Assembly (NCBI GenBank): GCA_963664395.2
Contig: OY761159.2
Coordinates: 3,840,001-3,904,000, forward strand
Reading direction: 5' to 3'
Length of the DNA: 64,000 bases
Origin: Candidatus Binatia bacterium
Lineage (GTDB): Bacteria; Desulfobacterota; Binatia; Bin18
The notes under the pieces are model-generated. The model was not told the origin of the DNA and ran no database searches. It saw nothing but the letters and a program-made list of their open reading frames with translations. Positions 4,640-55,819 of the stretch are shown here, piece after piece. How positions within the stretch are numbered: the first letter of the stretch is position 1; each line of letters begins with the position of its first letter. A program made the translations under genes and the position numbers.

Positions 4640-4819
4640 CGAAAGCGTCCAAAACGAACGATGGTGGAACGTGACAGAACATTTTGGCTCGGGCACCGTG
4701 GGGGTCTCTCGATTCAAGGCGAGCGGGTCGCATTCCACTTCCCCTTCACGACCGGTCTGATTGTGAGTATTGATATATCCCTGTTTTTCTTGCTGCCGAG
4801 ACGATAAGAGCGAGAGAGT

Positions 4820-7144
4820 ATGGAAGCCTCAGTCCACGAGAGTCGTTCACACGAGAGTCGCTCACACGAGAGTCGCTCACACGAGAGTCGTTCAGGGGAG
4901 CACAAACGCCGCCAGCTCCGAGAAATATTTGTCATCCTCGCCGCTGCCCTCGGCGTTTTCTTGTTTGCCTTTCTCCAAAGTCGGTCTCCACAATTAAGCG
5001 ATAGCGAAAGCCTGGCCAGCAATATCATTTTCATTCTGCTGATCAATCTCAATATCATTCTGCTTGTTTTGCTCGTTTTTCTTGTTTGTCGGAACCTGCT
5101 GAAGCTGTTCTACGAGCGACGAGGGAAGCTCCCCGGTGCCCACCTCCGTTCTCGGCTCGTTCTCGCTTTTTTAGGAATTTCCCTTTTCCCGGCGGTACTC
5201 CTGTTTTTTATCGGTATCGGCTTTATGACGAAGTCGATCGAGAATTGGTTCTCTTTACGTGTTGAGCACTCGTTAAGTAGTTCGCTTGAGGTCGTTGATG
5301 GTGTCTATACGCGTCTTGCTGATGAGGCGCTCACGCACGCACGGGCAATCGCCCAGACGATTATCTCCCAAGATTTCCTTGAGCCGACGCGCTACGAGAG
5401 TCTGCAAGCCCGTATGAGTATCGAGCAGCACGAACGTGGCTTGGCTCAGCTCGTTGTGTATTCTCCTGCTCTCACCCTTTTGGCCAACGCGCCGGAGACA
5501 AGTGGGGCGCTGACGGCTCCCCAGCTCACCGAGGCCCTCTTGGAACGTGTCCGGTCTGAGACCCAAGAGGTTCAGCAAATCGTGACCATGGAGCAGGCAG
5601 AGCTGGTGTACGGAGGTGTACCGGTCATCGTTGGAGAACACCGTGTTGGTATTGTCGTGGCCGGCACTCAGGTTCCCGTGGACGTGGTCAGACAAGGCTT
5701 GCAGGTGGTTGAGGCGTTGAGGGAGTATCGCCAACTCAAAATTTTGAAACAGCCAATTAAAAACAATTATGTGATTACGATGTTCCTGGTCACCCTCGTC
5801 GTCATCTTCTCGGCGATCTGGGTCGGCGTGTATGTCGCGAAAAAAATTACTGTTCCGCTCCAACAATTATCGGCTGCGACGCGGGAGGTTGCGCGGGGCC
5901 ACTGGGCGCACCGGATTGAGGGAGAAGGGGAGGACGAAATAGGCACGCTCGTCTCCGCGTTCAATCGGATGACCGTCGAACTCCAGCAGAGTCACCAAGA
6001 ACTTGAGGCCCGACGGCGCTATATGGAGATTCTGCTCGGGAATATCAATGCTGGCGTGGTCTCGTTTGATCGGGACGGGCGGCTCTCCACCCTGAACCGG
6101 GCGGCAGAGCAGTTGCTTCATTTGCGTGCAGACAACGTGATTGGCCAGGACTATCGTGTCATCTTCTCCTCAAACGAGTTCCAAGAAGTGCAGCGCATCG
6201 TGCGCGAGCTCCTTCCGGTGCAATACGGCAATGGTAACGACGACAGCCACGAACAGCAGGGCCAGCTCCGTTTGGATCACCATGGACAAGTCCATTCCCT
6301 CTTGATAACAGGAACCCCTTTGCCTGATGACCGGGATAATGCGCTCGGTGTGCTGTGCTTTTTTGAGGATGTGACTCAGATCGTCCAAGTCGAACGCCTG
6401 GAAGCCTGGCGAGAGGTAGCCCGTCGGATTGCGCATGAAATTAAAAATCCGCTCACGCCCATTCAGCTTGCCGCTCAGCGTCTACACCGCCGCTTTGCTC
6501 CCCAGATTACAGACGGGAGCGGGGTGTTTGACGAGTGCGTGCAGAGCATTGTGCATGAAGTCGATGCTATTAAAAAACTCGTCAACGAATTTTCCACCTT
6601 CGCTCGTCTGCCGGCCGGAGAGCATAGTCCGCATGACGTGAATGCGTTGGCGCAAGAGACGCTTGTCCTGCTCGCTGAAGCCTACCGTGATTTGGATTTC
6701 GTCTTTACGCCGGATCGTTCGTTGCCGGTGTTCGAGCTTGATCGCGAGGGTATGCGTCGTGTCATTCGCAATCTGTTAGACAATGCAGTCGTAGCGTGTC
6801 GGGAAGGCGCGAATGGGACTCCGGGACGTATCGAAATCACGACTCGATATTTGCGCCCGCTTGGCATTGTACGCATCGAAGTCGCCGATAATGGCTGTGG
6901 GATCCCGCCCGAAGTAAAGGGACGATTGTTCGAGCCGTATTTTTCAACCAAAAGGGACGGGACCGGATTAGGGCTGGCGATTGTTGCAACCGTGGTGGCT
7001 GATCATCAAGCCTTTATCCGGGTGCGGGACAATGCGCCACGCGGCAGCCGGTTTGTGATTGAAATGCCGGTGCGCAGAAGTGCGCGTCAGACAAATCTGA
7101 GGCGTGAGAGACCCTCGTCGCCATCAATTGAAAACGTAGCGTGA
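4820..7144 (+). CDS. NtrY-like sensor histidine kinase (TM, periplasmic, HAMP, PAS, HisKA, HATPase)
   Basis: AWREVARRIAHEIKNPLTPIQL H-box typical of NtrY; NLLDNA, DNGCG, FEPYFSTK, GTGLGL boxes. Confidence 0.92.
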   Translation: MEASVHESRSHESRSHESRSHESRSGEHKRRQLREIFVILAAALGVFLFAFLQSRSPQLSDSESLASNIIFILLINLNIILLVLLVFLVCRNLLKLFYERRGKLPGAHLRSRLVLAFLGISLFPAVLLFFIGIGFMTKSIENWFSLRVEHSLSSSLEVVDGVYTRLADEALTHARAIAQTIISQDFLEPTRYESLQARMSIEQHERGLAQLVVYSPALTLLANAPETSGALTAPQLTEALLERVRSETQEVQQIVTMEQAELVYGGVPVIVGEHRVGIVVAGTQVPVDVVRQGLQVVEALREYRQLKILKQPIKNNYVITMFLVTLVVIFSAIWVGVYVAKKITVPLQQLSAATREVARGHWAHRIEGEGEDEIGTLVSAFNRMTVELQQSHQELEARRRYMEILLGNINAGVVSFDRDGRLSTLNRAAEQLLHLRADNVIGQDYRVIFSSNEFQEVQRIVRELLPVQYGNGNDDSHEQQGQLRLDHHGQVHSLLITGTPLPDDRDNALGVLCFFEDVTQIVQVERLEAWREVARRIAHEIKNPLTPIQLAAQRLHRRFAPQITDGSGVFDECVQSIVHEVDAIKKLVNEFSTFARLPAGEHSPHDVNALAQETLVLLAEAYRDLDFVFTPDRSLPVFELDREGMRRVIRNLLDNAVVACREGANGTPGRIEITTRYLRPLGIVRIEVADNGCGIPPEVKGRLFEPYFSTKRDGTGLGLAIVATVVADHQAFIRVRDNAPRGSRFVIEMPVRRSARQTNLRRERPSSPSIENVA
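4835..4894 (+). repeat. 15-bp tandem repeat x4 (CACGAGAGTCGYTCA) encoding HESRS x4
   Basis: Read directly from the sequence. Confidence 0.95.
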
Positions 7145-7163
7145 GGAAGGGGAGGGACGCCTA

Positions 7164-8474
7164 ATGGAAGAGCTGATTCTCATTGTAGATGACGAAGAAC
7201 AAATCCGGACGACGTTACGCGGGATTTTACAAGATGAAGGGTTCCGTACGCTCGAAGCGGACTCGGGTGAGGGCGTGGTAAACTTAGTCGCCACGTGGCA
7301 TCCGCGTCTCGTGCTCCTCGACATCTGGATGCCACACATTGACGGGATCGCCCTCCTTGAACAGCTTCAGTCTCAAAACCCCGACTTGCCTATTATTGTG
7401 ATTTCCGGCCATGGAACGATCGAAACAGCAGTCCGTGCCACAAAACTAGGAGCGGCCGATTTCCTTGAAAAACCCTTCTCGCTGGAAACCTTACTCCGTT
7501 CGGTCCATCGTGCCCTGGGAAAAGAGCCGGGCCACACCACCTCTGCACAGATAGCCGCCGCTACGGCTGATGCTGACTTCCCTGCGGTGCACGCTACGCG
7601 AAAAATCCCGGCTCGGACCATTCGTCAGAGTGTTGTCGTGCATGGCCGGGGGCTCCACTCGGGGGTCCGCACGGGAATTATTTTCCATCCCTTATCGCCG
7701 GGTAGCGGCATTGTTTTTGGCACGTTGTCCTCAGACATTATGATTCCGGCCACCGTCGAGTATGTCCAATCGACCGGCTACGCAACCAGCCTGTATCGAG
7801 CGGGTACGGGGGTGAAAACGGTTGAACATCTGCTCTCGGCCTTGCATGGCTATGGCATCACTAACCTCCTCATTAAAATGCAAGGAGAGGTTCCCATTCT
7901 CGATGGCTCGGCGCTGGAATTTTGTCAATTGCTCGAGAGTGCTGGCATTGTTGAACAAGACGAAGAGGTGGAAGCCTTGAGTGTGGACCGGACGTATCAG
8001 GTCGGCGACCACAGTGCCGGGAAGTTCCTCCGCATTGAGCCCTCAGAGCAGCTTGAGATATCCTACTGCTTAGAATATCCGGAGCCAGTTGGGAGACAGG
8101 AGTTCCACTACGTCCATGGTGATGCTGACCGCTACCGTGAGACTATCGCGCCGGCGCGTACATTTGGCTTTCTCAAGGAGATTGAGGCACTTGAAGAGAT
8201 GGGCCTTGCCAATGGGGGTCGGCTGAATAACTGCCTCGTGATAGGCGAGCAAGGCATCATCAATCCGCCCCTCCGCTTTGATGATGAGCTTGTCCGTCAC
8301 AAGATTCTTGATTTGCTCGGCGATCTCTATTTATTAGGCCAGCCCATCCGCGGCAAAGTGACTGCCTACCGGACAGGACATGGGGACAACGTCGCTTTGC
8401 TGCGGGCAATTCGAGAGGAGCAGACGCCGCGCGTGCCAGAGCCTCCGTCAAGGGTACCCTCGGCTCTCCAGTGA
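7164..8474 (+). CDS. lpxC: Fusion of NtrX-type response-regulator receiver domain and UDP-3-O-acyl-GlcNAc deacetylase LpxC
   Basis: N-term LIVDDE, LLDIWMP, ISGHG, EKPF; C-term RTI..G.GLHSG, TVEHLLSAL, EVPILDGSA, APARTFGF, HKILDLLGDL, TGH. Confidence 0.93.
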   Translation: MEELILIVDDEEQIRTTLRGILQDEGFRTLEADSGEGVVNLVATWHPRLVLLDIWMPHIDGIALLEQLQSQNPDLPIIVISGHGTIETAVRATKLGAADFLEKPFSLETLLRSVHRALGKEPGHTTSAQIAAATADADFPAVHATRKIPARTIRQSVVVHGRGLHSGVRTGIIFHPLSPGSGIVFGTLSSDIMIPATVEYVQSTGYATSLYRAGTGVKTVEHLLSALHGYGITNLLIKMQGEVPILDGSALEFCQLLESAGIVEQDEEVEALSVDRTYQVGDHSAGKFLRIEPSEQLEISYCLEYPEPVGRQEFHYVHGDADRYRETIAPARTFGFLKEIEALEEMGLANGGRLNNCLVIGEQGIINPPLRFDDELVRHKILDLLGDLYLLGQPIRGKVTAYRTGHGDNVALLRAIREEQTPRVPEPPSRVPSALQ

Positions 8475-8478
8475 CCCC

Positions 8479-9780
8479 TTACGGTGTCACCCGCTCTAAC
8501 ATTCTGGGAAATGGAATTGATTCTCGGACGTGATGCAGACCGCACAGCCAGGTGACCAGCCGCTCAATACCCATGCCGAAACCTGCATGGGGAACGGAGC
8601 CGTAGCGTCTCAGGTCAAGATACCAAGAGAAGGCTTCTGCGGGCAGGTCATGCGCCTCTATCTTCCCTTGTAGGACGGAGAGGTCGTCTTCACGTTGTCC
8701 GCCCCCTATGATCTCGCCATAGCCCTCTGGCGCTAAGACGTCCATGCATAAGGCAACTCTAGCATCATGAGGGTCGGTCTTCATATAAAAGGCTTTGTTT
8801 TCTGTCGGGTAGCGATGGATCATAACCGGACGGTCAAATTGTTCGGATAAGATGGTCTCGTCATCGCCGCCAAAGTCATCCCCCCACTGAATGTCAACGC
8901 CTTTCGCTTGCAGGCGTTCGACAGCCTCGCTGTAGCTAATACGTGGAAACGGCTTCTTCACCTGAACGAGTTTGGCCGTATCACGCTCAAGTGCTTGGAG
9001 TTCAGCTTGTCGGTTGGCCAGGACGCGCTGGACAACGGCCTCCAGAAAATCTTCGGCGAGATCCATGTCGTCATTCAAGTCGCAGTAGGCAACTTCGGGC
9101 TCAATCATCCAGAACTCGGTCAGATGGCGACGCGTTTTGGATTTCTCGGCACGAAAGGTAGGACCACAGCAGTAGACTTTGCCAAACGCCATGGCGCCGG
9201 CTTCCATATAAAGCTGGCCGCTTTGGGTGAGATAGACGGTGTCATCGAAATATTCGACCGGAAAAAGTGTGGTTGTCCCTTCACAGGCGGCGGGCGTGAA
9301 GATCGGGGCATCGAGGAGGGTAAAGCCATGAGCATCGAAGTAGTCTCGACAAGCCTTTATGACTTCACTGCGAATACGAAGCAAGGCATGCTGGCGTGAG
9401 GAGCGAAGCCACAGGTGGCGGTGGTCGAGCAGAAAGGCAATACCGTGTTCTTTGGGGGTAATGGGATAGTCGTGGGCCTGCTGAGTGACTTTTAAGTCGG
9501 TCACGCCGAGTTCAAATCCAATGGGTGAGCGGGGATCAGCCCGGACCGTGCCCTGTACGACAACGGACGATTCCTGTGTAAGGTCATGCCCTAAGGCAAA
9601 TGTCTCAGCAGAGAGGTCACCCTTGAATACCACACACGGGATCGTGCCGGTGCCGTCGCGGACTTGAAGAAAATGCAATTTTCCGCTGGATCGCTTGTTA
9701 TACAGCCAGCCTCGGAGCTCGACCTCTTGCCCTTCGTATGGCGCGATATCCCTTACATAAACCCACTCAGGCATAGGCAT
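8479..9780 (-). CDS. asnS: Asparagine--tRNA ligase
   Basis: OB-fold RGW...[50 protein letters not shown]. Confidence 0.95.
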
Positions 9781-9842: not shown

Positions 9843-10841
9843 ATGCGGCCGAGTCGGATAGTCGTATATGCCTCTCTGTTGCTCTTCCTGCTCACGACAG
9901 GTGGAGCACCGACACACGTGTGGTCGTCGGAGTGCATCTCTTCGTGGGACTATCTCCGCTGTCAGTTGCATATTGTTCAAATAGAGCGGGTTGCACGGCG
10001 TCTGCTTGAAGCGGTTCCTCAGCCGCCTCCTGTCCAGTTTATACTGGCCGTCGGCGAGCCGACGATTAACGCTGGAGCAACCTTTGGCAAAGTCATACTC
10101 TCCTCTGGAATGATGGAATTCCTTCGCTCGGACGATGAACTGGCGATGATTCTGGGACACGAACTGGCGCATATTACCCAGGGACACGTTGCCCGAGGAG
10201 CGACGAACAACGTCCTGTTGGATATCGGAAATGCCTTAGCCAGCGCTGTTCTCCCTGGATCGGGTGTGTTGGTCGATATGGTTGGCCAGCTTTTTCTGAA
10301 TCATTTTAATCAAGATCAGGAGATGGAAGCTGACCGGGTAGGGCTCCAGTATGCGGCTGATGCCGGCTATGATCCACGAGCGGGTGAGGCGGTGATGCGC
10401 CGCCTGGCCGAAGAGGTTCCTCAGAGTGCGACTGCGGGGTTTTTCTCTTCTCATCCGTCTTCCGTAGAACGGGCGAGCGCACTGAAGAAGAGGGCGGGCC
10501 GGCTGACCAGGCGAGCGGACGGCGTGCGGCGAACGAAGAGCGTGACCCGGTTTGGCCGGGATGAAGCGGCGTGTCGCCGGGCAAAGCCATATTTTTACCG
10601 TGCTCGGGAGAGTCTGAATTTAACCTGGAAAGCCGCGCTCTATCGTCGAGGCTTAGGCCAGTGCCCGGAGAGTCCACGCGCCCATTTTGAACTGGCCGAG
10701 ACCTATATCCAGCTGGGCCAGGATCGGCGGGCTGCTGCGGAACTGCGCGCGGTGCTGCGCTATGACTCGGGGTATCCGCGCGCCCAACGTCGGCTGCGTG
10801 AAGTTGAGGGCCGTCTCGCGTCGGGAAAAAGTCGAAAATAA
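9843..10841 (+). CDS. Exported M48 family zinc metallopeptidase with C-terminal TPR
   Basis: Signal-like N-term, [22 protein letters not shown]; TPR-like AHFELAETY...AAAELRAVL. Confidence 0.88.
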
Positions 10842-36937: not shown

Positions 36938-38032
36938 TTAGTCGATACCGAGAAGGAAATAAATACCGACTAAGCCTCCTGTCCCATTAGCGAGCCAAGC
37001 GGAGAGGGTCGGGGGAAGGACTCCACCATTTCCGAGGGAAACGGTGAGGGCGAGAAAGACCCAGTAGCCAAACCCGACAAGCAGCGCTGAAGTGAGTGCC
37101 ATTGGTATAGTAAGCTGCTTCGCGCCTGGTATTGTAAGTGCTATCCCTAATAATGTCATAACGAATGCTGCAAAAGGGACTGCGCCCTTGAGCTTGAGAT
37201 CTACTTGATACTCTGTTGTATCTAGGCCCTTCTGTTGGAGATCCTCAATATAATCTCTGAGTGCTTGTGATGAAAATTCTTCTGCTTTCATGGTGACAAG
37301 GGAGAAGTCTTCTGGCGTTTCCTTGAGCAGAAGAGCCGGAGAGAGAGGACGAAGCGCCTCTCCTTGCTCCAGTCCATTCTCCTGGACCCCTTCAAAATGC
37401 CATCTTCCGTCTCGCCAAGAGGCTTGGGCAATCTTTGTCAGAGACTGCACCTGAAAATTTTCACTGAGGGTGTAAATAGTGAGACCAGAAAGAATATTGC
37501 GACGTGAATCAAAGTGATTGATATGATAGAAGCTCCTTTCTCCATGGTACCAGAACCCTTGTGTCTGGAAGAGGCCTTTAAAGGTCTTTCCTTTGATCTC
37601 CACGGTATTGATATAGCGAGACTTGTGAAAAGCGTACGGAACGACACTCTCATTCCACACCCATCCACCAATACTTAATACACAGGCAGATAAGAGGAGT
37701 GGGGCAGCCATCTGCCAGGCACTAATACCACAAGATTTGAGTGCCAGGAGCTCCTTATGTCGGGAGAGAATTCCGAGGCTCAGCAGTGACCCTGCGAGTG
37801 CCGCGGCAGGAACAGCCTGTGTGACAAAGAGAGGTAATTTAAAAAGAAAGTAGCGCCCTATAGCGGAGAGGGGCGCTTCGTATTTTACGAAACTGTTAAA
37901 GCGGTCAAAAAAGTCGACCAGGAGCGAAAGCCCGAGAAAGAGGAGAAGACAGAGCGAAAAGAGACGAATAAATTCTTTACACAGATAGACTGCTATTAGT
38001 CGAGAGGGAAAAGGAAAGCCGTTTCGACCCAT
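36938..38032 (-). CDS. lptG: LPS export ABC transporter permease LptG (start uncertain)
   Basis: LptF/G architecture, ELLALKSCGIS, LG.GG.LPP.LSAWLAN; second gene of the pair. Confidence 0.85.
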   Translation of the reverse strand: MGRNGFPFPSRLIAVYLCKEFIRLFSLCLLLFLGLSLLVDFFDRFNSFVKYEAPLSAIGRYFLFKLPLFVTQAVPAAALAGSLLSLGILSRHKELLALKSCGISAWQMAAPLLLSACVLSIGGWVWNESVVPYAFHKSRYINTVEIKGKTFKGLFQTQGFWYHGERSFYHINHFDSRRNILSGLTIYTLSENFQVQSLTKIAQASWRDGRWHFEGVQENGLEQGEALRPLSPALLLKETPEDFSLVTMKAEEFSSQALRDYIEDLQQKGLDTTEYQVDLKLKGAVPFAAFVMTLLGIALTIPGAKQLTIPMALTSALLVGFGYWVFLALTVSLGNGGVLPPTLSAWLANGTGGLVGIYFLLGID

Positions 38033-38049
38033 GAGTCCGTGCGCCGGAG

Positions 38050-39228
38050 TCACTGGACAATAAAAGAGGAAAATGGACGCTTGGAAAGACATTGCGACAA
38101 CCAAGCCAAGAGAGGAAAAAGGGGTTTTTCTTGTGTCACCCGAGAAAAAAGATAGACACCGAGACCGCCTAATACGCCATTCGGTATCCACAAGGCAATC
38201 GCAGGAGGGAGCACCCCTCTTTTTCCAAATGTCTCCCCGGCAGTAAGGAGAAGATAGTATAGCAGGATAATCCCGAGGCTTACGCCAAATCCAACCGAAC
38301 GAAAGGACCAGGTCGTTCGTACACTGAGAGGAAGGGCGATCAGACTAAAGACAACACACGCGAACGGAAGGGCAAGGCGGCGGTGAAATTCGACGAGTGC
38401 GTTGTTGTGTTGTGACGATGCTTCTTGGCTCTGAGATAAGCGGTGTAAGAGTTCCACTGTTGTCATATCTTTTGGACTATGATTTGGCTCTTTCACGTGA
38501 GCGAGCAGTGCGGCAGTATCCAAAGTAACATCATAGACAGAAAAATGGGTTGTCTGATGACCCTTTTCTGTTTGTTGCATACTATGCACAGTCCCTTCGT
38601 TTAAGCGTAGGGTCAACATATTTCCTTCAGCACTAGGAACAATGAGGCCATTGTGAGCAAAAATGGTATCTTTTCTTTGTGGAGCTCGACTATCAGCGAT
38701 CATAATTCCTTTGAGAAGTGTACCTGGCGGTTTAATTTCTTCTGCATAGATCACCAGACCTGCAAATTCGCTATTGAACGTTTTTTCTTTTAACCCCGCG
38801 GTTGCCCGTGTTCTCGAAACATCGTAGAACACACGATCAAGTCCAGCGTTACTCCACGGACGGACAGAGAGGGTGAGGAAAAAAGAGCTCCCTAGAAGGA
38901 CCGCTGTCAACAAGTAAAGCGGCAAAGCCATTTGGGAGAGGCTGATACCACAACTCTTCAGCGCAATGACTTCTCTGTCTGTTGTGAGACGGCCAAATCC
39001 CCATAGAATGGCAAGGAGGAAGGCCATAGGCACTGTCACTTCGAGAAAAGAAGGAAGGACAAAAAACAGCATTTTACTGATATGCAGGATCGATACGCCT
39101 CGACTGATTACTAAATCAACGAGTTTAAGGATGCGAGTCGTGAATAAAATGCAGGTAAAGATGAGCAAGCTGAGACAGAAGGGCACAGTAATTTCGAGGA
39201 AGATGTAGCGTGTCAAGATTTTGCCCAT
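38050..39228 (-). CDS. lptF: LPS export ABC transporter permease LptF
   Basis: ILTRYIFLEI, GRLTTDREVIALKSCGIS, EFHRRLALP, WIPN. Confidence 0.88.
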   Translation of the reverse strand: MGKILTRYIFLEITVPFCLSLLIFTCILFTTRILKLVDLVISRGVSILHISKMLFFVLPSFLEVTVPMAFLLAILWGFGRLTTDREVIALKSCGISLSQMALPLYLLTAVLLGSSFFLTLSVRPWSNAGLDRVFYDVSRTRATAGLKEKTFNSEFAGLVIYAEEIKPPGTLLKGIMIADSRAPQRKDTIFAHNGLIVPSAEGNMLTLRLNEGTVHSMQQTEKGHQTTHFSVYDVTLDTAALLAHVKEPNHSPKDMTTVELLHRLSQSQEASSQHNNALVEFHRRLALPFACVVFSLIALPLSVRTTWSFRSVGFGVSLGIILLYYLLLTAGETFGKRGVLPPAIALWIPNGVLGGLGVYLFSRVTQEKPLFPLLAWLSQCLSKRPFSSFIVQ

Positions 39229-40798: not shown

Positions 40799-41983
40799 AT
40801 GGCGAAGGAGCGGTTTAAGCGGACGAAGCCGCACATGAATGTGGGGACGATCGGGCATATTGACCATGGGAAGACGACGTTAACGGCGGCGATCACGAGC
40901 GTGTTGGCGGAGCAGTCGATGGCGGTGGCGGTGGCGTTTGACGAGATTGACAAAGCGCCGGAGGAGAAGGAGCGCGGGATCACGATCAACACGGCGCACG
41001 TGGAATACGAGACCGAGCAGCGGCACTATGCGCACGTGGATTGTCCGGGGCATGCGGACTATATCAAGAACATGATCACAGGGGCGGCGCAGATGGACGG
41101 GGCGATACTAGTGGTTGCGGCTTCGGATGGGCCGATGCCGCAGACGCGGGAGCACATTTTATTAGCGCGTCAAGTGGGGGTTCCGGCGATTGTCGTGTTC
41201 ATGAACAAGGTAGACATGGTGGATGATGAGGAGCTACTGGATTTAGTGGACTTGGAGATGCGGGAACTGCTGTCGAAGTATGATTTTCCGGGCGATGAGA
41301 CCCCGATCATTCGGGGGAGTGCGCTGCGGGCCTTAGAGGGGGAAGCGGAGGGGAAGGCGCAAGTGCTGGAGTTGATGGCGGCGGTAGACAGTTTTATTCC
41401 CGAGCCGGCGCGGGAAGTGGACCAAGAGTTTTTAATGTCCGTGGAGGACGTGTTTACGATTTCGGGGCGGGGGACGGTGGCGACGGGGCGCGTGGAGCGG
41501 GGGCGGGTCAAAGTGGGGGAAGAGGTAGAGATTGTGGGGATTCGGGAGACGCAGAAGACGACGGTGACCGGGGTAGAGATGTTCCGCAAGCTGTTAGATG
41601 AGGGCGTGGCGGGGGACAACGTGGGCTGTTTACTGCGGGGGATCAAGCGGGAAGAGATTGAGCGGGGGCAGGTTTTGGCGAAGCCGGGGAGTATCACGCC
41701 GCATACGAAGTATGAAGCCGAAGTGTATGTGTTGACGAAAGATGAGGGGGGGCGGCACACGCCGTTTTTCAATGGATATCGGCCGCAGTTTTACTTTCGG
41801 ACGACGGATGTGACGGGGGCGGTGACGTTGCAAGCCGGCACGGAGATGGTGATGCCGGGGGACAACACGCAGATGACGGTGGGGTTGTTGACGCCGATTG
41901 CCATGGATGAGGGGTTACGGTTTGCGATTCGAGAGGGAGGACGCACGGTGGGCGCGGGCGTCGTTACCAAAATCTTGGAGTAA
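40799..41983 (+). CDS. tuf: Elongation factor Tu, copy 1
   Basis: [28 protein letters not shown]. Confidence 0.98.
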
Positions 41984-45212: not shown

Positions 45213-48200
45213 ATGGCTGATATGGCTGGAAATCTAGCGCATAACTTCCGTATTCGACGGTCCTTTGGTCATATCGAAAAAATCATCGAATTCCCACATC
45301 TGCTGGAAATTCAACGTCATTCATATGACGAATTTCTCCAGCGGCTGCTCACCGCTGACCGGAGGACCGATGCCGGACTCCAAGGGGTTTTTCGGTCTGT
45401 TTTTCCGATTAAGGACTTCAACGAGACGGCGTCACTTGAGTTTGTGAATTATACACTTGGAGAGCCAAAATACTCAGTCGAAGAGTGTCACCAAAGAGGG
45501 ATGACGTATGCTGCCCCTCTCAAAGTCACAATTCAGCTTGTTTTATGGGATGTTGATTCGAGTAGCGGCGCTCGAACGATCAAAAACGTAAAAGAGCAGG
45601 AAGTCTACTTTGGCGAGGTCCCTTTAATGACCACTCATGGCACATTCATGATCAACGGGACTGAGCGTGTTATTGTGAGTCAGCTCCACCGGTCCCCTGG
45701 GGTCTTTTTTGATCATGATAAGGGAAAAACGCACGCGAGTGGGAAATTACTCTACTCTGCGCGCGTCATTCCATACCGTGGGTCTTGGATCGATTTTGAG
45801 TTTGACCCAAAAGACATTCTGTATGTCCGGATTGACCGCCGCCGCAAGTTTCACGCAACCGTACTCTTACGGGCGTTGGGTATGTCAACCGAGGATTTGC
45901 TGAATTATTTCTACCGAAGGGATACTATCTTTCTCAGTAGAAAGGGTGGACAAACGCCAGCAAAGGCTTTTCTGCCCGACCATCTCCTCGGTATGCGGGC
46001 AACGCAGGACGTTCGCAACCCTGAAACAGGTGACTTGTTAGTGAAGGAAGGACGGAAGTTCACCCGCGGGGCGCTGAGACAGTTAGAGGCGGCTGGTCTT
46101 GAGCGTATACCCATCACCGCAGAGGAAATTATTGGTCGTGTGGCTGCACGCGATATTATCGATCCCTCGACACAAGAAGTACTCGTACAATGTAATGAGG
46201 AGATTTCGCAGGAACAAGTTGATCTTCTCATTGAGCGTGGCGTGCACCAGTTTGAAGTCTTGTTCATTGACGATGCGCATACAGGCTCTTCGCTTCGCAA
46301 TACACTCCTCCAAGACAAGGTCACTTCTTCAGCCGAAGCGATGATTGAGGTCTATCGACGTCTGCGCCCTGGCGATCCACCGACCAGCGAGGCTTCCACG
46401 TCGTTTTTTCACAACCTGTTCTTCAATCCCGAGCGGTATAATCTCTCCCGAGTGGGGCGTCTGAAGCTCAACCATAAGCTTGGGATAACGGCTCCTCTGG
46501 ACCAGGGTACCTTGCGCGGTGAAGATATCTTAGAGACCGTTCGCTACGTAGTCGAACTCAAAAATGGCAATGGCGTCGTTGATGATATTGACCACTTAGG
46601 AAATCGTCGTGTCCGTGCGGTCGGCGAGCTCGTCGAAAACCAGTTTCGTATTGGCTTAGTACGGATGGAGCGGGCGGTGAAAGAGCGGATGAGTCTCCAG
46701 GATGTTGAGACGTTAATGCCGCAAGAATTGGTCAATTATAAGCCGGTTTCAGCAGCTCTCAAGGAATTTTTCGGGTCGAGCCAGCTCTCCCAGTTCATGG
46801 ACCAAACGAATCCGTTGTCGGAGGTAACGCACAAGCGGCGGCTTTCCGCGCTAGGGCCTGGCGGGCTGACGCGGGAACGTGCTGGCTTTGAGGTGCGTGA
46901 CGTTCACCCTACTCACTATGGCCGCGTCTGTCCTATCGAAACACCGGAAGGGCCAAATATTGGGCTGATTTCAAGTCTTTCAACATATGCTCGTGTCAAT
47001 GAGTTTGGGTTCATTGAGACGCCCTATCGGACAGTGGAAAGTGGACGAGTCACTGAGAAGGTCCACTATTTATCTGCCTTAGAGGAAGAGAGTCAGACAA
47101 TCGCGCAGGCGAACGCGCCGGTCGATGCAACAGGCAATTTTGTCAACCCATTGGTCTCTGCCCGACTTGGTGGGGAGTTTGTGATGGTGCAACCTGACCA
47201 AGTCCAGCTCATGGATATATCTCCCACTCAGCTGGTCAGTGTTGCCGCCGCCCTGATCCCTTTCCTGGAACATGATGATGCCAACCGGGCACTGATGGGG
47301 TCTAATATGCAGCGGCAGGCTGTACCCTTGCTGCGGACGGAAGCCCCGCTTGTTGGAACTGGAATGGAGCAGATTGTGGCCCGAGATTCCGGGGCTACCC
47401 TTATCGCTCAGCGTGACGGAATTGTTGAGAGTGTGGATTCCACTCGGGTGGTGATTAAAGCCGAATCGCATACCACACCGGGAGACGTTGGTGTTGACAT
47501 GTATAGTCTCACGAAATACCAACGCTCTAACCAAAATACGTGTATTAACCAACGGCCTATTGTTCAGATTGGTGATCGGGTAGAGGAGGGCGATGTCATT
47601 GCTGATGGCCCAGCTACAGAAATGGGAGAACTCGCGCTAGGGAGAAACGTCCTGGTCGCGTTTATGATCTGGGGGGGCTATAACTTCGAGGATTCTATCC
47701 TGGTGAGTGAGCGACTGATTCGCGACGATGTTTTTACATCGGTCCATATTGAAGAGTTTGAATGTGTCGCTCGGGACACAAAACTCGGCCCAGAGGAAAT
47801 CACCCAAGACATTCCGAATGTTGGAGAAGAAGCACTCAAGGATCTTGACGAGAGTGGCATTGTCAGAATCGGCGCCGAAGTGAGGCCGGGCGATATTCTC
47901 GTTGGCAAAATAACGCCCAAGGGAGAGACTCAACTTTCTCCAGAAGAGAAACTGCTCCGAGCAATTTTTGGTGAAAAAGCCGGAGAGGTTCGTGATACCT
48001 CGCTCCGTGTTCCCCCTGGGGTCGAAGGCGCGGTGATTGATGTCCGCGTGTTCTCACGTAAAGGCGTCACCAAGGACGAGCGTAGCCAGTATCTCGAAGA
48101 GGCCGAGATTCAGCGGCTCCAACAAGATCGGGATGAAGAGATCCGCATTATCCAAGACAGTACGCGCGGAAAGATCAAGCAATTGTTGGTCGGAAAGACG

Positions 48201-49343
48201 GCAACGATGCGGGTCAGTGACGATGATTCTCGACGCGTAGTCATAGCGAAAGGGCAGGAGATTACAGAAGAGCTGCTGGACACACTGTCAGCTCAGTTGT
48301 GGAGCAGGGTCCGAGTGGAAGACGAGGCGGTAGAGGAGGAGATACGAAAGACGACGGATTCTCTCGCCGACCGTGTCGGCTCTATCCGCGGAGAATGCGA
48401 AAGAAAAATCGAGAGACTCAAGAGTGGAGACGAGTTGCCCCCTGGGATTATCAAGATGGTGAAGGTCTTTGTCGCCATAAAACGCCGCCTCCAAGTTGGT
48501 GACAAGATGGCTGGGCGACACGGGAACAAGGGGGTCCTGTCTCGGATTCTACCAGAAGAGGACATGCCGTATCTTGAGGATGGCACTCCGGTCGATGTTG
48601 TCCTCAACCCTCTGGGGGTGCCCTCTCGTATGAATGTTGGGCAAATTCTGGAAACCCATCTGGGTTGGGCGATGCAGTCCCTTGGCCGGCAGATCGGGAA
48701 CGATGCAGAGGAAGATGGAAAAGCTGCTGCCGACAGTCTCCGTGCGCGGCTCAAGGACCTCGCTCGTTCAACCGATGTTTCTCGACTTATTGATGGACTC
48801 TCGGGGGCCGAGGTCAAAGAGCTGGCCGGTCGATCGAAGCACGGCTCTCACGTTGCGACTCCGGTCTTTGATGGTGCCCCGGAGGCGGAGATTTTCTCTT
48901 TGCTTGCGCAGGCAGGCCTTCCCGATACCGGGCAGACGACGCTCTACGATGGGCGAACAGGAGAACCTTTCAGCCAGCCAGTGACCGTCGGTGTAATGTA
49001 TATCTTAAAACTGCACCACCTTGTTGAAGATAAGATTCACGCACGATCAACTGGACCCTACTCCCTTGTGACGCAACAGCCTCTTGGTGGAAAAGCGCAA
49101 TTTGGGGGACAACGGCTTGGAGAAATGGAAGTGTGGGCACTTGAAGCCTATGGTGCCGCGTACAGCTTGCAAGAGATGCTCACGGTAAAATCGGACGATG
49201 TTGCCGGTCGAACTCGTATGTATGAAGCGATTGTAAAGGGAGAAAATATCCTGGAACCTGGATTGCCTGAGTCGTTCAATGTGATGATCCGCGAGCTCCA
49301 GAGTCTGGCGCTCAATGTCGAACTGATTGAAGAAACTGAATAA
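45213..49343 (+). CDS. rpoB: RNA polymerase beta subunit
   Basis: [34 protein letters not shown]. Confidence 0.99.
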
Positions 49344-49360
49344 GGTGAGGTGAGGACAAA

Positions 49361-52300
49361 ATGGAAGATTTTCTGGGTCTTTTTGAAAAACCCCAAAATC
49401 CGCTCCGTTTTAATGCGATCCAGGTCTCGTTGGCATCTGCTGATATGGTCCGCTCTTGGTCCCATGGTGAGGTCAAGAAGCCTGAAACCATAAATTACCG
49501 AACTTTTAAGCCTGAGCGCGACGGGCTTTTTTGTGCGAAAATATTCGGGCCAACCAAAGACTATGAATGCAATTGTGGCAAATACAAACGTATGCGCCAT
49601 AGAGGCGTCGTCTGCGAGAAGTGCGGGGTTGAGGTCATTCAGTCGAAAGTCCGTCGTGAACGAATGGGCCATATTGACCTTGCCAGTCCAGTGGCACACA
49701 TTTGGTTTTTGAAGAGCCTCCCCAGCCGGATTGGGACACTCATGGATATGCCGCTCAAAGAGCTTGAGCGTGTTCTATACTTCGAGTCCTATATCGTTCT
49801 CGATCCGGGTGAAACCCCGCTCAAGAAAAAAGAACTATTGAGTGAGGTCCGTTATCGGCAAGCGGTTGAGGAGTTTGGTCCGGGTAGCTTCCGAGCAGGA
49901 ATGGGTGCAGAAGCGGCCCGTGAGTTATTGCAAGACTTTGATCTGGAGCAGCTGGCGCGGGAGCTCCAGGTTGAAATGGTTGACACATCGAGCGAAGCCC
50001 GGCGGAAGAAAGCTGCGAAACGCTTGAAGGTCGTCAATGCCTTTCGTCACTCCAGCAACCATCCGGAAGAGATGATTCTGGAAGTCATTCCTGTCATTCC
50101 GCCCGACCTACGTCCCCTCGTCCCGCTCGATGGGGGACGCTTTGCGACTTCTGATCTGAATGACCTGTATCGTCGGGTTATTAATCGGAATAACCGTCTC
50201 AAACGACTCATAGAGCTGAGCGCTCCGGATATTATTATCCGCAATGAGAAGCGCATGCTTCAGGAAGCAGTTGATGCCCTCTTTGATAACGGTCGCCGTG
50301 GCCGACCACTCACCGGTCCCAATAAACGTCCACTCAAATCCTTGTCTGACATGTTGAAAGGAAAAGGGGGGCGTTTTCGTCAAAATCTTCTTGGGAAGCG
50401 AGTAGATTATTCAGGTCGTTCAGTCATTGTTGTTGGGCCGGAATTGCGTCTCCATCAATGTGGTTTGCCGAAATATATGGCTTTGGAATTGTTCAAACCC
50501 TTCATTTACAACAAGCTTGAGGAGCGCGGTTACACAACGACGATCAAGAGTGCCAAAAAGATGGTCGAAAGTGAACGGCCAGAAGTCTGGGATATCCTAG
50601 ATGAAGTGATTCGCGAGCACCCAGTCCTCCTGAACCGAGCTCCGACACTGCACCGGCTCGGCATCCAAGCCTTTGAACCAATCCTTATTGACGGAAAGGC
50701 AATTCAACTGCACCCCCTCGTCTGCATGGCCTATAACGCCGACTTTGACGGCGACCAAATGGCCGTGCATATCCCGCTGTCAGTTGAGGCACAGGTTGAA
50801 GCGCGCAGCTTGATGATGTCGACCAATAATATTCTTTCTCCTGCGAATGGCCGGGCGGTGATTGCCCCAACTCAGGATATGGTTCTGGGGTTGTATTCCA
50901 TGACGCGGCACCGCGCCGGAGCCTTAGGGGAAGGGAAAACGTTTGGTCATCCAGAAGAAGTTCGTATAGCCTACGATCAAGGCGCGGTCGATTTGCAGGC
51001 AAAGGTCATTGTGCGCCTGGATGGTGAACGGGTCGAAACGACAGTTGGCCGTATCTTGCTGGCTGAAATTGCACCGCCTGAGATTCCCTTTTCAGATATG
51101 AACCGGGTGATGAAGAAAAAAGAGCTCGGTGCCTTGATTGATGCGGCCTTTTTGAAAGCGGGAAACAAGGCCACCGTGATTTTCGCGGACCGTTTGAAAG
51201 ATCTTGGATTCGAGTATGCCACTCGGGCTGGAATATCAATTGGAATCAAGGACATGGTGATTCCGAAAGAAAAAGGCCCTCTCTTGGACAAAGCCCAAAA
51301 GGCCCTGCAGGAGATTCAAGACCAATATACAAAAGGTCTGATTACGGATGGTGAGCGTCATAATAAGGTTATTGATACCTGGGCATCAGTCACCGATGAC
51401 GCGGCCAATGAGATGTTCAGAGGACTCCAAGAGGACAGAGCCGGGTTTAGCCCTATCTATATGATGGCGGACTCTGGATCGCGTGGGAGTGCTCAGCAAA
51501 TTCGCCAGCTGGCGGGTATGCGCGGATTAATGGCAAAGCCATCGGGGGAAATCATCGAAACGCCGATCACTGCCAACTTCCGTGAAGGACTCTCCGTGCT
51601 TCAGTACTTCATCTCAACACACGGGGCGCGGAAAGGTTTAGCTGATACCGCACTCAAGACGGCTAATTCTGGCTATCTGACCCGACGGCTTGTTGATGTG
51701 GCTCAGGACTCAATCGTGAGCGAAGAAGACTGTGGCACGATTGATGGCATCGAGATGACCCCTTTGGTTGAGGGTGGGGAAATAATAGAAGGCCTTGGCG
51801 AGCGTGTCCTGGGACGTGTTGCCCTCGACGATATTCGTGATCCTTTTACCCAAGAAGTTATTGTTCGCGCAAACGAAGAAATTGACGAAGACCGTGTCAC
51901 GCGCATCGAAGAAGCCGGGATTGAGCGTGTATGGATACGGTCTGCTCTGACCTGTACGACCAGGCGAGGCATATGTGGGCGGTGCTATGGTCGGGATCTT
52001 GCCCGTGGACGGATAGTGCACTTGGGAGAGGCCGTTGGCATTATTGCTGCGCAGTCAATTGGTGAGCCAGGCACCCAACTGACAATGCGGACGTTCCACA
52101 TCGGTGGGACGGCGAGTCGACGAGCCGAGCAAACGACCCTGACGGTTCGCAACGAAGGGGTCCTTCACTATAACAACCTTAAGACCGTGGTTGACCGGGA
52201 TGGTGATTTGGTCGTGATGAACCGGAACGGGGAGGTTGCTGTTGCTGAGATCCTAGAGCCGGGACGGGAGCGTGAAAGAGAACGCTATCCCATCGTCTAT

Positions 52301-53458
52301 GGTGCAAAGCTGAAAAGGAAAGATGGCGCAAAGGTGAAAACCAATGACTTAATCGCGGAATGGGATCCCTATACGTTCCCGATTCTGACCGAGGTCAGCG
52401 GTGAGGTAAAATTCGGTGATATCGACGACAGGACCATGCAGGAAAAAGTGGATGAGCGGACGGGTTTATCCACGCGCGTCATTATTGAATTCCGAGACCC
52501 GAATATGCGTCCACGGGTGTCAATCAAAGATGAGAGTGGCAAGACGGCCAAGCTGTCGAACGGGTTGGATGCCCGCTATCTCCTCCCTGTTGGTGCCAAT
52601 ATTAATGTGCGCGCGGGTCAACGCGTCGAAGCAGGGGATGTGCTCGCAAAGATCCCACGAGAAACCACAAAAACAAAGGATATCACTGGTGGATTGCCTC
52701 GGGTTGCCGAGCTCTTTGAGGCACGCAAGCCGAAAGGGTTCGCCGTTATCAGTGAGATTGAAGGGGCCGTCTCTTTTGGTAAGGATACAAAAGGGAAAAG
52801 GAAGGTATTGATTACTCCTGAGGTTGGCGAAGCGCGGGAGTATCTCATTCCTCGGGGAAAACACATCAGCGTGCGAGAAGGCGATTATGTTCGGCCAGGA
52901 GAGCCGCTGATGGCCGGCTCCTCAAATCCCCATGATATCCTTGGCGTTCTCGGAGAACGCGAGCTCGCAAAGTCTCTCGTGGACGCGATCCAAGAAATAT
53001 ATCGTCTCCAGGGGGTGCGCATCCATGATAAGCATATCGAAGTGATTGTGAGACAAATGATGCGGCGCGTTCTCGTGACCGAAGTCGGAGATTCTCATTT
53101 CTTAATTGGCGAGCAAGTAGAGAAGTGGCGTTTCCAAGAAGAGACTGAACGTGTGCTGTCTGATGGAGGGACTCCACCAGAAGCGAAATCGCTCTTGATG
53201 GGAATTACAAAGGCGAGTCTCTCAACGGATAGTTTTATCTCAGCCGCTTCGTTCCAAGAAACGACAAAGGTGCTGACGGAAGCGGCCATTAACGGCAAAG
53301 TAGATCACCTGCTGGGACTTAAAGAAAATGTCATTATGGGCCGGCTCATTCCTGCTGGGACAGGAACTCCGAGTTACACGCAGCTGACTGCCGGGAGCCC
53401 AGAGGCTGTGCCTGAGGAAGAAGAGCCTTTGCCAATTTCCCAAGTGCTCGAAGCATAG
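49361..53458 (+). CDS. rpoC: RNA polymerase beta' subunit
   Basis: [12 protein letters not shown], zinc finger, [11 protein letters not shown]. Confidence 0.99.
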
Positions 53459-54634: not shown

Positions 54635-55819
54635 ATGGCGAAGGAGCGGTTTAAGCGGACGAAGCCGCACATGAATGTGGGGACGATCGGGCATATTGAC
54701 CATGGGAAGACGACGTTAACGGCGGCGATCACGAGCGTGTTGGCGGAGCAGTCGATGGCGGTGGCGGTGGCGTTTGACGAGATTGACAAAGCGCCGGAGG
54801 AGAAGGAGCGCGGGATCACGATCAACACGGCGCACGTGGAATACGAGACCGAGCAGCGGCACTATGCGCACGTGGATTGTCCGGGGCATGCGGACTATAT
54901 CAAGAACATGATCACAGGGGCGGCGCAGATGGACGGGGCGATACTAGTGGTTGCGGCTTCGGATGGGCCGATGCCGCAGACGCGGGAGCACATTTTATTA
55001 GCGCGTCAAGTGGGGGTTCCGGCGATTGTCGTGTTCATGAACAAGGTAGACATGGTGGATGATGAGGAGCTACTGGATTTAGTGGACTTGGAGATGCGGG
55101 AACTGCTGTCGAAGTATGATTTTCCGGGCGATGAGACCCCGATCATTCGGGGGAGTGCGCTGCGGGCCTTAGAGGGGGAAGCGGAGGGGAAGGCGCAAGT
55201 GCTGGAGTTGATGGCGGCGGTAGACAGTTTTATTCCCGAGCCGGCGCGGGAAGTGGACCAAGAGTTTTTAATGTCCGTGGAGGACGTGTTTACGATTTCG
55301 GGGCGGGGGACGGTGGCGACGGGGCGCGTGGAGCGGGGGCGGGTCAAAGTGGGGGAAGAGGTAGAGATTGTGGGGATTCGGGAGACGCAGAAGACGACGG
55401 TGACCGGGGTAGAGATGTTCCGCAAGCTGTTAGATGAGGGCGTGGCGGGGGACAACGTGGGCTGTTTACTGCGGGGGATCAAGCGGGAAGAGATTGAGCG
55501 GGGGCAGGTTTTGGCGAAGCCGGGGAGTATCACGCCGCATACGAAGTATGAAGCCGAAGTGTATGTGTTGACGAAAGATGAGGGGGGGCGGCACACGCCG
55601 TTTTTCAATGGATATCGGCCGCAGTTTTACTTTCGGACGACGGATGTGACGGGGGCGGTGACGTTGCAAGCCGGCACGGAGATGGTGATGCCGGGGGACA
55701 ACACGCAGATGACGGTGGGGTTGTTGACGCCGATTGCCATGGATGAGGGGTTACGGTTTGCGATTCGAGAGGGAGGACGCACGGTGGGCGCGGGCGTCGT
55801 TACCAAAATCTTGGAGTAG
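54635..55819 (+). CDS. tuf: Elongation factor Tu, copy 2
   Basis: Protein identical to 40799..41983. Confidence 0.98.

Follow-up and report, generated by a model that had tools for sequence, protein, structure and literature searches.

In a 64,000-nucleotide (nt) stretch of DNA from a Candidatus Binatia bacterium (contig OY761159.2 of assembly GCA_963664395.2; hereafter the window), a gene for a sensor histidine kinase is followed on the same (+) strand by a gene in which a response regulator receiver (REC) is joined in frame to LpxC. LpxC commits the cell to the synthesis of the lipid A of the outer membrane; it is the control point of lipopolysaccharide (LPS) synthesis and a long-standing antibiotic target, and its regulation is known mainly from a few Proteobacteria, in which it occurs by proteolysis or indirectly through transcription. 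Our working hypothesis, to which we assign a probability of roughly two in three, is that the locus is a dedicated two-component system that would have the enzyme LpxC itself as its output. The two open reading frames (ORFs) span 4820..7144 (774 amino acids, aa) and 7164..8474 (436 aa) and are separated by a spacer of 19 nt (7145..7163) that carries a Shine-Dalgarno-like GGAGG. ORF and Pfam analyses confirmed what a first-pass annotation, made from the letters of the window, had described here, i.e. a kinase gene and, 19 nt on, a complete receiver that continues in frame into full-length LpxC.

A receiver joined to the only LpxC of the genome

The fusion gene was assigned on the basis of its ORF, Pfam and NCBIfam models, and a search of the genome. 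Specifically, Pfam places Response_reg (PF00072) at residues 5-114 (7176..7505; E 3.4e-31, 108.1 bits against a cut-off of 30.2) and LpxC (PF03331) at residues 151-416 (7614..8411; E 8e-87, 291.6 bits against a cut-off of 27), and the Pfam scan found neither an AAA+ nor a helix-turn-helix (HTH) domain in the 436-aa protein, as the first-pass annotation had stated. The Ala/Thr-rich linker noted there between the two domains corresponds to residues 119-150 (7518..7613) and is predicted to be disordered. The protein scores 261.6 bits with the TIGR00325 lpxC equivalog model, for which the cut-off is 187.25. In NCBIfam, the best whole-family match of the receiver is NtrX, over the receiver part only, and with 125.3 bits it does not reach the NtrX cut-off of 600 (NF051870).

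All the receiver and LpxC motifs listed in the earlier annotation are present. The active site of the receiver is complete, with D9/D10, the phospho-acceptor D53 (7320-7322) in LLDIWMP, S81 in ISGHG, F100, and K103-P104 in EKPF. The LpxC domain has E221/H222 in TVEH, T333/F334, H379-K380-x-x-D383, D387, and G405-H406, and H222, H379, D383, E221, and H406 align with identical residues of Aquifex aeolicus LpxC (1xxe). In the LpxC literature, the zinc ligands are His, His, and Asp, and the catalytic residues are Glu and His. We predict that the protein has the deacetylase role in the lipid A pathway of the cell, which its position as the only LpxC match and the presence of lpxA and lptF/lptG support indirectly. 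The closest solved structures are A. aeolicus LpxC 1xxe for the LpxC part and 4d6x and 5m7n, which we take to be the Brucella NtrX receiver, for the receiver part; in this structure comparison no single solved chain spanned both. An AlphaFold2 model calculated from a 56-row alignment (mean predicted local distance difference test score (pLDDT) 85.8; predicted template modelling score 0.73) contains two confident domains, and pLDDT falls below 50 at linker residues 121-143 and in the C-terminal tail (residues 423-436; 8430..8471), which is variable, of low identity among homologues, and predicted to be disordered. The prediction of a complex between the receiver (residues 1-120) and the LpxC domain (residues 146-422) gave a score of 0.00 and a mark of 0.32 and counts neither way on docking.

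The fusion gene is the single PF03331 match in the 5.04-Mb genome, which is 95.9% complete, with no match to a second, stand-alone lpxC. lpxA is present in two copies. The contamination of this metagenome-assembled genome (MAG) is reported as 5.4%. An identical pair of genes for a kinase and an NtrC-type regulator occurs at G000 C7:10029-13060 and C1:2127406-2130437 with equal scores, which suggests a duplicated or redundantly assembled region of the MAG.

We considered that the fusion could be an artefact of assembly or gene calling, or a decaying pseudogene. No support for this was found; the two exceptions among 41 related genomes are G010, which is 65% complete and has no LpxC match, and G015, in which there is only a 61-residue fragment. 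The other 39 genomes, which represent 12 families of the class, each encode a full-length fused protein and have no unfused LpxC match. The fusion is a single ORF without internal stops and the same fused frame occurs in closed single-contig genomes. Moreover, a Logan contig of 5824 nt from an independent run covers 4700-8600 in one piece, and contigs of three metatranscriptome libraries from two studies bridge the receiver, the linker, and LpxC (X15, 6798-7811; X16, 7128-7800; X17, 7145-7684); a span of the linker by reads was among the checks that the first-pass annotation had called for. The search for proteins that combine PF00072 and PF03331, which the first-pass annotation had proposed, gave the same picture in that the best 120 of 7997 database matches all carry both domains. 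The match to both domains with all their motifs is far above what chance would produce. With this strong conservation, the artefact reading is already refuted and retains a negligible probability.

To follow the fusion beyond its closest relatives, 151 genomes, each at least 80% complete, were sampled evenly from the phylum. An LpxC-type match is present in 144 of these and a fusion in 37, of which 11 are REC-AAA+-LpxC proteins and 26, window included, are REC-LpxC proteins. In 36 of the 37 carriers there is no second LpxC match at E<=1e-35. G072 is the sole carrier with both a REC-LpxC (40% identical; C11:39482-40762) and a plain LpxC (C33:20144-20956).

In an alignment of 56 short fusions with 33-90% identity to the window protein, the phospho-site residues of the receiver and the active-site residues of the enzyme are both retained: D10, S81, K103, and P104 are present in 56/56, D53 in 55/56, and D9 in 54/56, and E221, H222, H379, K380, D383, D387, and H406 are all present in 56/56. 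Homologues that are 64-70% identical overall share 64-75% of the receiver, 69-76% of LpxC, and only 6-28% of the linker. More broadly, linker identity to the window protein is 0-28% where the receivers are 29-76% identical and 31-81% in the five closest homologues, and across the family the length of the tether ranges from ~25 aa to >300 aa. Because the receiver is retained together with its phospho-site at about the level of conservation of the enzyme, we read the alignment as selection on receiver function, i.e. selection keeps the receiver working.

The LpxC domain also has features of its own. Six residues are near-fixed in 80 fused domains (85-99%) and rare in 100 unfused LpxCs (1-23%), namely T170 and G171 (7671-7676), K238 (7875-7877), C254 (7923-7925), E292 (8037-8039), and Y389 (8328-8330). 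At residue 238 the charge is reversed, with K in fused and E in unfused LpxC. These residues, sought as a candidate docking patch, may mark a surface that is specific to the fused clade.

The kinase and its pairing with the fusion

The upstream gene (4820..7144, +) was assigned to a sensor histidine kinase of NtrY-like architecture on the basis of its 774-aa ORF, its Pfam domains, and comparisons with other kinases. It has a membrane/sensor region with a borderline NtrY_N match (residues 39-325; 4934..5794), HAMP (residues 339-390) and PAS (residues 405-518) domains at 5834..6373, and a kinase core at 6407..7075 composed of HisKA (residues 530-600) and HATPase_c (residues 641-752). NtrY_N scored 22.9 bits against a cut-off of 23.2 with hmmscan and 24.4 bits, which is above the cut-off, in the genome search. 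The phospho-accepting H539 (6434-6436) lies in the H-box HEIKNP, and the N-box, G1, and G2 are at residues 651, 690, and 714, respectively. In a hydropathy scan, hydrophobic segments at about residues 32-141 and 313-346 enclose a loop of ~170 aa; the kinase is predicted to have about four transmembrane segments, and the loop is presumably extracytoplasmic. At the N-terminus, four 15-nt units form a tandem repeat (4835..4894) that encodes (HESRS)x4. The relatives of the kinase align only from residue 27, past this repeat, and the contig from one independent run lacks 30 nt, or two repeat units, at 4862, from which we take it that the copy number of the HESRS repeat varies between strains. The true start codon may lie further downstream than 4820.

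Three sets of comparisons address whether this kinase and REC-LpxC belong together. First, the genome contains ~11 kinase-like and ~10 receiver ORFs, most of which lie beside or near their partner, and the neighbour of this kinase is REC-LpxC; a single 142-aa receiver ORF has no adjoining kinase. No other kinase of the genome matches NtrY_N, and all of its regulators score below the NtrX cut-off. Second, in the set L014-L039, upstream DNA is available for 23 fused loci, and in all 23 a kinase lies immediately before the fusion, even at loci where the fusion shares only 48-54% identity and the synteny with RuvAB/AsnRS is lost. A further fused locus, L037 from a Spirochaetota MAG, has no kinase beside the fusion; there, a 426-aa REC-LpxC (5992-7272) is preceded by a stand-alone protein with a Lon substrate-binding domain (5179-5856). 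Third, the window kinase is 38-58% identical to the kinases upstream of other fusions (38-45%, over the full length, for distant fusions) and 33-42% identical to the kinases of clusters in which lpxC is unfused. Taken over the full length, the kinases of this lpxC-linked family are 33-45% identical to it, with ~300-560 bits. By comparison, the kinases in loci L040-L092, which were found through NtrX-like receivers and many of which are alphaproteobacterial, are mostly 23-32% identical, mostly from about residue 370 onward, and score 52-122 bits; only L041 stands apart, with 31% identity over residues 109-750 and 219 bits. For true alphaproteobacterial NtrY the identity is 23-25%, limited to the C-terminal half. 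Judged from these alignments, the kinase belongs to a distinct lpxC-linked family and not to alphaproteobacterial NtrY, and it looks like the cognate partner of REC-LpxC. The earlier description of an NtrY/NtrX-type pair, therefore, holds for the architecture and not for the ancestry, the closest relatives of both kinase and receiver being in a family of lpxC-linked kinases and sigma-54 regulators.

The kinase and REC-LpxC genes probably form one operon. The X15 RNA-library contig (record 7, 6798-7811) crosses the spacer between them, which is compatible with co-transcription and does not prove it; over parts of the kinase gene such contig cover is missing, which is uninformative.

In Binatia, the neighbours of the fusion are ruvB and asnS. 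Just past the divergent asnS, the window contains a gene for a 332-aa protein with Peptidase_M48 and tetratricopeptide repeat domains (9843-10841, +), which is syntenic in 7 of 19 close relatives (at least 79% identical) and has a match also in L030 (67% identical). We assume from this domain architecture a resemblance to BepA, a periplasmic protease/chaperone for LptD. lptF and lptG, which the first-pass annotation had placed in the same stretch, are present at 36938-39228 on the minus strand. Further along, two ORFs of exactly 394 aa each (40799-41983 and 54635-55819, +) stand around large ORFs (1376 and 1365 aa) at 45213-53458. Each 394-aa ORF has an antisense ORF of identical length, and the two look like a duplicated gene, tuf-like by position.

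Long forms, unfused clusters, and the probable origin of the fusion

A search of 1.84 billion representatives returned 2043 matches at E<=1e-30. Among the top matches are proteins of 650-750 aa in which Pfam identifies REC, Sigma54_activat, AAA_lid, in some cases an HTH, and LpxC, as well as a 491-aa form with REC, HTH_8, and LpxC and a 505-aa form the middle part of which lacks a Pfam assignment. According to their source names, the long and intermediate forms are from Nitrospinota and Entotheonellia, and the short forms are also from Methylomirabilota, Deltaproteobacteria, and Binatia. The source databases label these fusion proteins plain LpxC, which makes the receiver fusion invisible in genome annotation.

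In trees of the LpxC domain, all fused forms lie in one clade, apart from unfused LpxCs (first tree, 112 rows with 66 unfused LpxCs, Shimodaira-Hasegawa-like approximate likelihood ratio test 98; second tree, 186 rows with 100 unfused LpxCs, support 87). Six 'AAA-LpxC' and four 'LpxC-only' representatives inside this clade look like truncated gene calls; two comparable loci, L108 and L123, begin at a contig edge. Because the short and long forms are interleaved within the clade, there were at least two losses of AAA+. The aligned long forms all retain REC and LpxC and lack the GAFTGA loop; their Walker A/B motifs are often degenerate, and a Fis-type HTH is present in some only. GAFTGA is the motif that contacts sigma-54. 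G[AS]FTGA occurs in 0/15 long fused representatives and 0/36 fetched fused loci, as opposed to 19/21 unfused regulators that adjoin lpxC. The Binatia REC-LpxC, which by its domain composition consists of the receiver, the tether, and the enzyme, is the minimal form of the family.

The unfused regulators come from clusters in which lpxC, a kinase gene, and a gene for a REC-AAA+ regulator follow each other on one strand, an arrangement present in 18 of 80 metagenome loci. In these 18 loci, the kinase is mostly 33-39% identical to the window kinase over most of its length, and in five it matches over a shorter part. In one cluster characterised in detail, LpxC has 319 aa, the kinase matches NtrY_N with 35.5 bits, and the 450-aa regulator combines a full Sigma54_activat domain (240 bits) with HTH_8. 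Four genomes of the same phylum have an unfused cluster as well, and identity to the window proteins is 38-42% for their kinases (residues ~90-752) and 57% for their receivers.

A system of this kind has been described. In Desulfovibrio vulgaris, where the kinase is DVU2931, lpxC is the only mapped target of the NtrC-type sigma-54 regulator DVU2934, and in Syntrophobacter fumaroxidans the orthologous operon is immediately preceded by lpxC (PMC3333781, in excerpt). Going by this description, the unfused lpxC-kinase-regulator clusters are probably of the DVU2931/DVU2934 type: in both, a kinase and an NtrC-type regulator are tied specifically to lpxC, and the position of lpxC upstream matches that reported for S. 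fumaroxidans (PMC3333781, in excerpt). In the D. vulgaris system and the unfused clusters, control is transcriptional and exerted by a separate DNA-binding sigma-54 activator with GAFTGA, whereas in the window the regulator is part of the enzyme.

Because all fused forms are in one clade, because the long forms have lost GAFTGA, and because the kinases and receivers of the unfused clusters are closest to those of the fusions, we suggest as the most likely ancestor of the fusion a transcriptional two-component system, linked to lpxC, that turned post-translational. In this scenario, an lpxC-linked system of a kinase and a sigma-54 regulator would have been joined to LpxC, the contact to sigma-54 (GAFTGA) would then have been lost, and subsequently AAA+ and HTH would have been lost repeatedly. 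The first-pass annotation had suggested an origin by deletion of the NtrX output domains from an ancestral ntrY-ntrX-lpxC order. The deletion part of this proposal agrees with the existence of REC-AAA+-(HTH)-LpxC proteins among which the short forms are nested; the ancestral order does not, as the unfused order found is lpxC-kinase-regulator.

A proposed phosphorylation switch within LpxC

Based on these data, we suggest the following mechanism. The membrane kinase would sense an envelope or membrane signal and autophosphorylate on H539, and the phosphoryl group would pass from H539 to D53 in the receiver of REC-LpxC. The phosphorylation state of the receiver would then alter LpxC output directly, and with it lipid A flux, through the signalling face of the receiver. 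Because the receiver is retained throughout and AAA+ and HTH decay, we suggest that the receiver itself acts on LpxC rather than AAA+ assembly or DNA binding. The variable length of the tether argues against rigid helical coupling and leaves two possibilities, namely that the receiver face docks on LpxC in cis, as in CheB, or that it drives receiver-mediated dimerisation. Phosphorylation may activate LpxC, by relief of inhibition; we favour activation because the unfused relatives are intact sigma-54 activators, which are switched on by phosphorylation, and this is a weak analogy.

Several observations weigh against a dedicated two-component system with LpxC as output. We infer phosphotransfer, the existence of regulation, its sign, and its mechanism from sequence. 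RNA-library contigs may include DNA carry-over and are no proof of a single transcript. Among the 37 fused loci of the phylum sample, 22 have no kinase within at least 3.3 kb upstream, the side that was inspected, and kinase adjacency is, therefore, not universal; a kinase is directly upstream in 10 (all five Binatia-class genomes, including that of the window, and five long forms), and in the remaining 5 the flanking sequence is too short to judge. One of the 56 aligned fusions, P0143, has N at the phospho-site. In alphaproteobacteria, NtrYX lowers the lpxC transcript, which is the opposite sign to the one we favour, according to the excerpted accounts (PMC7240162, PMC12444477). With respect to ancestry, we rejected the LpxCs of the unfused clusters as a sister group of the fused clade, all 15 being placed among ordinary unfused LpxCs. 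The receiver tree (116 rows, 117 columns) is too poorly resolved for a clade of fused receivers or a sister group, and the minimal clade containing every fused receiver (98 rows, support 84) also includes all 17 lpxC-adjacent regulators. Gene order differs as well, lpxC being first in the unfused clusters and last in the fusion. Because of the poorly resolved receiver tree, the placement of these LpxCs, and the difference in gene order, the path to the fusion is not reconstructed.

The loci without a kinase directly upstream and the family member that has lost the phospho-Asp would also be expected if the receiver were a passenger, i.e. a relic, an aid to folding or solubility, or a phosphate sink, on an LpxC that is constitutive, with the output of the kinase elsewhere; the repeated loss of AAA+ and HTH shows that old regulator parts do decay in this family. 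Yet every full-length member has the receiver, whose conservation matches that of the enzyme even where AAA+ and HTH have eroded. Its active-site residues hold down to ~30% identity, and the kinase adjoins REC-LpxC, most of the other kinases of the genome having a receiver gene of their own close by. We consider a passenger receiver improbable.

A receiver that works could still act on the lifetime of LpxC and not on its rate, if phosphorylation exposed or hid a degradation signal, or recruited a protease or adaptor, and so replaced control by FtsH/LapB/YejM. Receivers that recruit a protease or adaptor are known from RssB and CpdR. In line with this alternative, the variable tail is predicted to be disordered, the fusion adjoins the Lon substrate-binding-domain protein in the Spirochaetota MAG, and neither the YejM N-terminal domain (PF11893) nor a LapB zinc-ribbon match over the cut-off was found in the 95.9%-complete genome. 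Also, LpxC is under proteolytic control in the organisms studied so far, as far as the excerpted review goes (PMC12444477). The LapB result tells little because the 28-position zinc-ribbon model is unspecific, with matches over the cut-off in 10 of 14 control genomes; in addition, no conserved protease or adaptor gene lies beside the fusion in Binatia and the sequence bears no mark of a degron. We regard control of stability as unlikely, and as the likeliest of the alternatives.

Finally, signalling could run in reverse, such that the LpxC domain senses substrate or product, sets the gain or loss of phosphate at the receiver, and thereby informs the kinase or other regulators. Nothing speaks directly for this; it is compatible with the flexible tether and with a HisKA kinase that has an HExxN motif, which is associated with phosphatase activity. 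However, the related full-length regulators have lost their sigma-54 and DNA outputs, which leaves LpxC as the sole remaining downstream output, and a protein that is the only LpxC of the genome, with its catalytic residues all intact, is in all likelihood an active enzyme. We judge reverse signalling to be the least probable of the three.

The dedicated two-component system that we prefer resembles several known systems in part. Response regulators with enzymatic outputs include CheB, PleD/WspR, and RpfG, and the unphosphorylated receiver of CheB occludes the active site. As in CheB, one kinase-paired chain begins with a receiver and ends, after a flexible linker, with an enzyme; unlike in CheB, this enzyme is not a signalling enzyme but a zinc deacetylase that serves biosynthesis in an essential pathway. 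NtrY/NtrX of Rhodobacter sphaeroides, Caulobacter crescentus, and Brucella share the architecture of the kinase (HAMP, PAS, HisKA, and HATPase_c, with NtrY_N borderline in the window kinase), and the receiver matches NtrX models and structures best. In excerpts of the relevant reports, NtrYX affects the lpxC transcript and the LPS level (PMC7240162, PMC12444477), with a lower lpxC transcript in R. sphaeroides (PMC7240162); NtrX differs, however, in being a transcription factor with a broad regulon the effect of which on lpxC is reported there to be indirect (PMC7240162). FtsH/LapB/YejM control LpxC in Enterobacteria and Lon-dependent turnover is proposed in Alphaproteobacteria (PMC12444477, in excerpt). 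These mechanisms act on the same step, LpxC, and serve the same purpose of setting lipid A flux, but they do so by regulated proteolysis through separate proteins, whereas the window protein carries a putative phospho-switch domain as part of the LpxC polypeptide. LpxC is also joined to another domain in one polypeptide in the LpxC/FabZ fusion (NF009667); there, the partner is a C-terminal second enzyme, and the window protein, with 208.6 bits against a cut-off of 465, has no FabZ part.

The first-pass annotation knew of no description of direct, receiver-based control of LpxC, and in the full-text literature searched, which does not extend to subscription journals and supplements, we found no description of a receiver-LpxC protein. 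A 2025 review of lipid A regulation in the Journal of Biological Chemistry contains neither 'response regulator' nor 'fusion'; in it, two-component control of lpxC is at the transcript level only, and the two-component systems listed are not specific to LpxC (PMC12444477). We regard the Binatia fusion as a response regulator whose enzymatic output is new and as a putative new way of controlling LpxC.

In its full form, our proposal is that an envelope-sensing kinase drives a phosphorylation switch of LpxC and that the deletion series REC-AAA+-HTH-LpxC, REC-HTH-LpxC, and REC-LpxC records a shift of control from the gene to the protein; we lean towards this combination by a little over even odds. 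If correct, a receiver on the sole LpxC of whole lineages, together with its own kinase, would let a signal act directly and specifically on outer-membrane synthesis, and the family would be a rare, well-sampled case of a transcriptional regulator made post-translational by fusion to its target.

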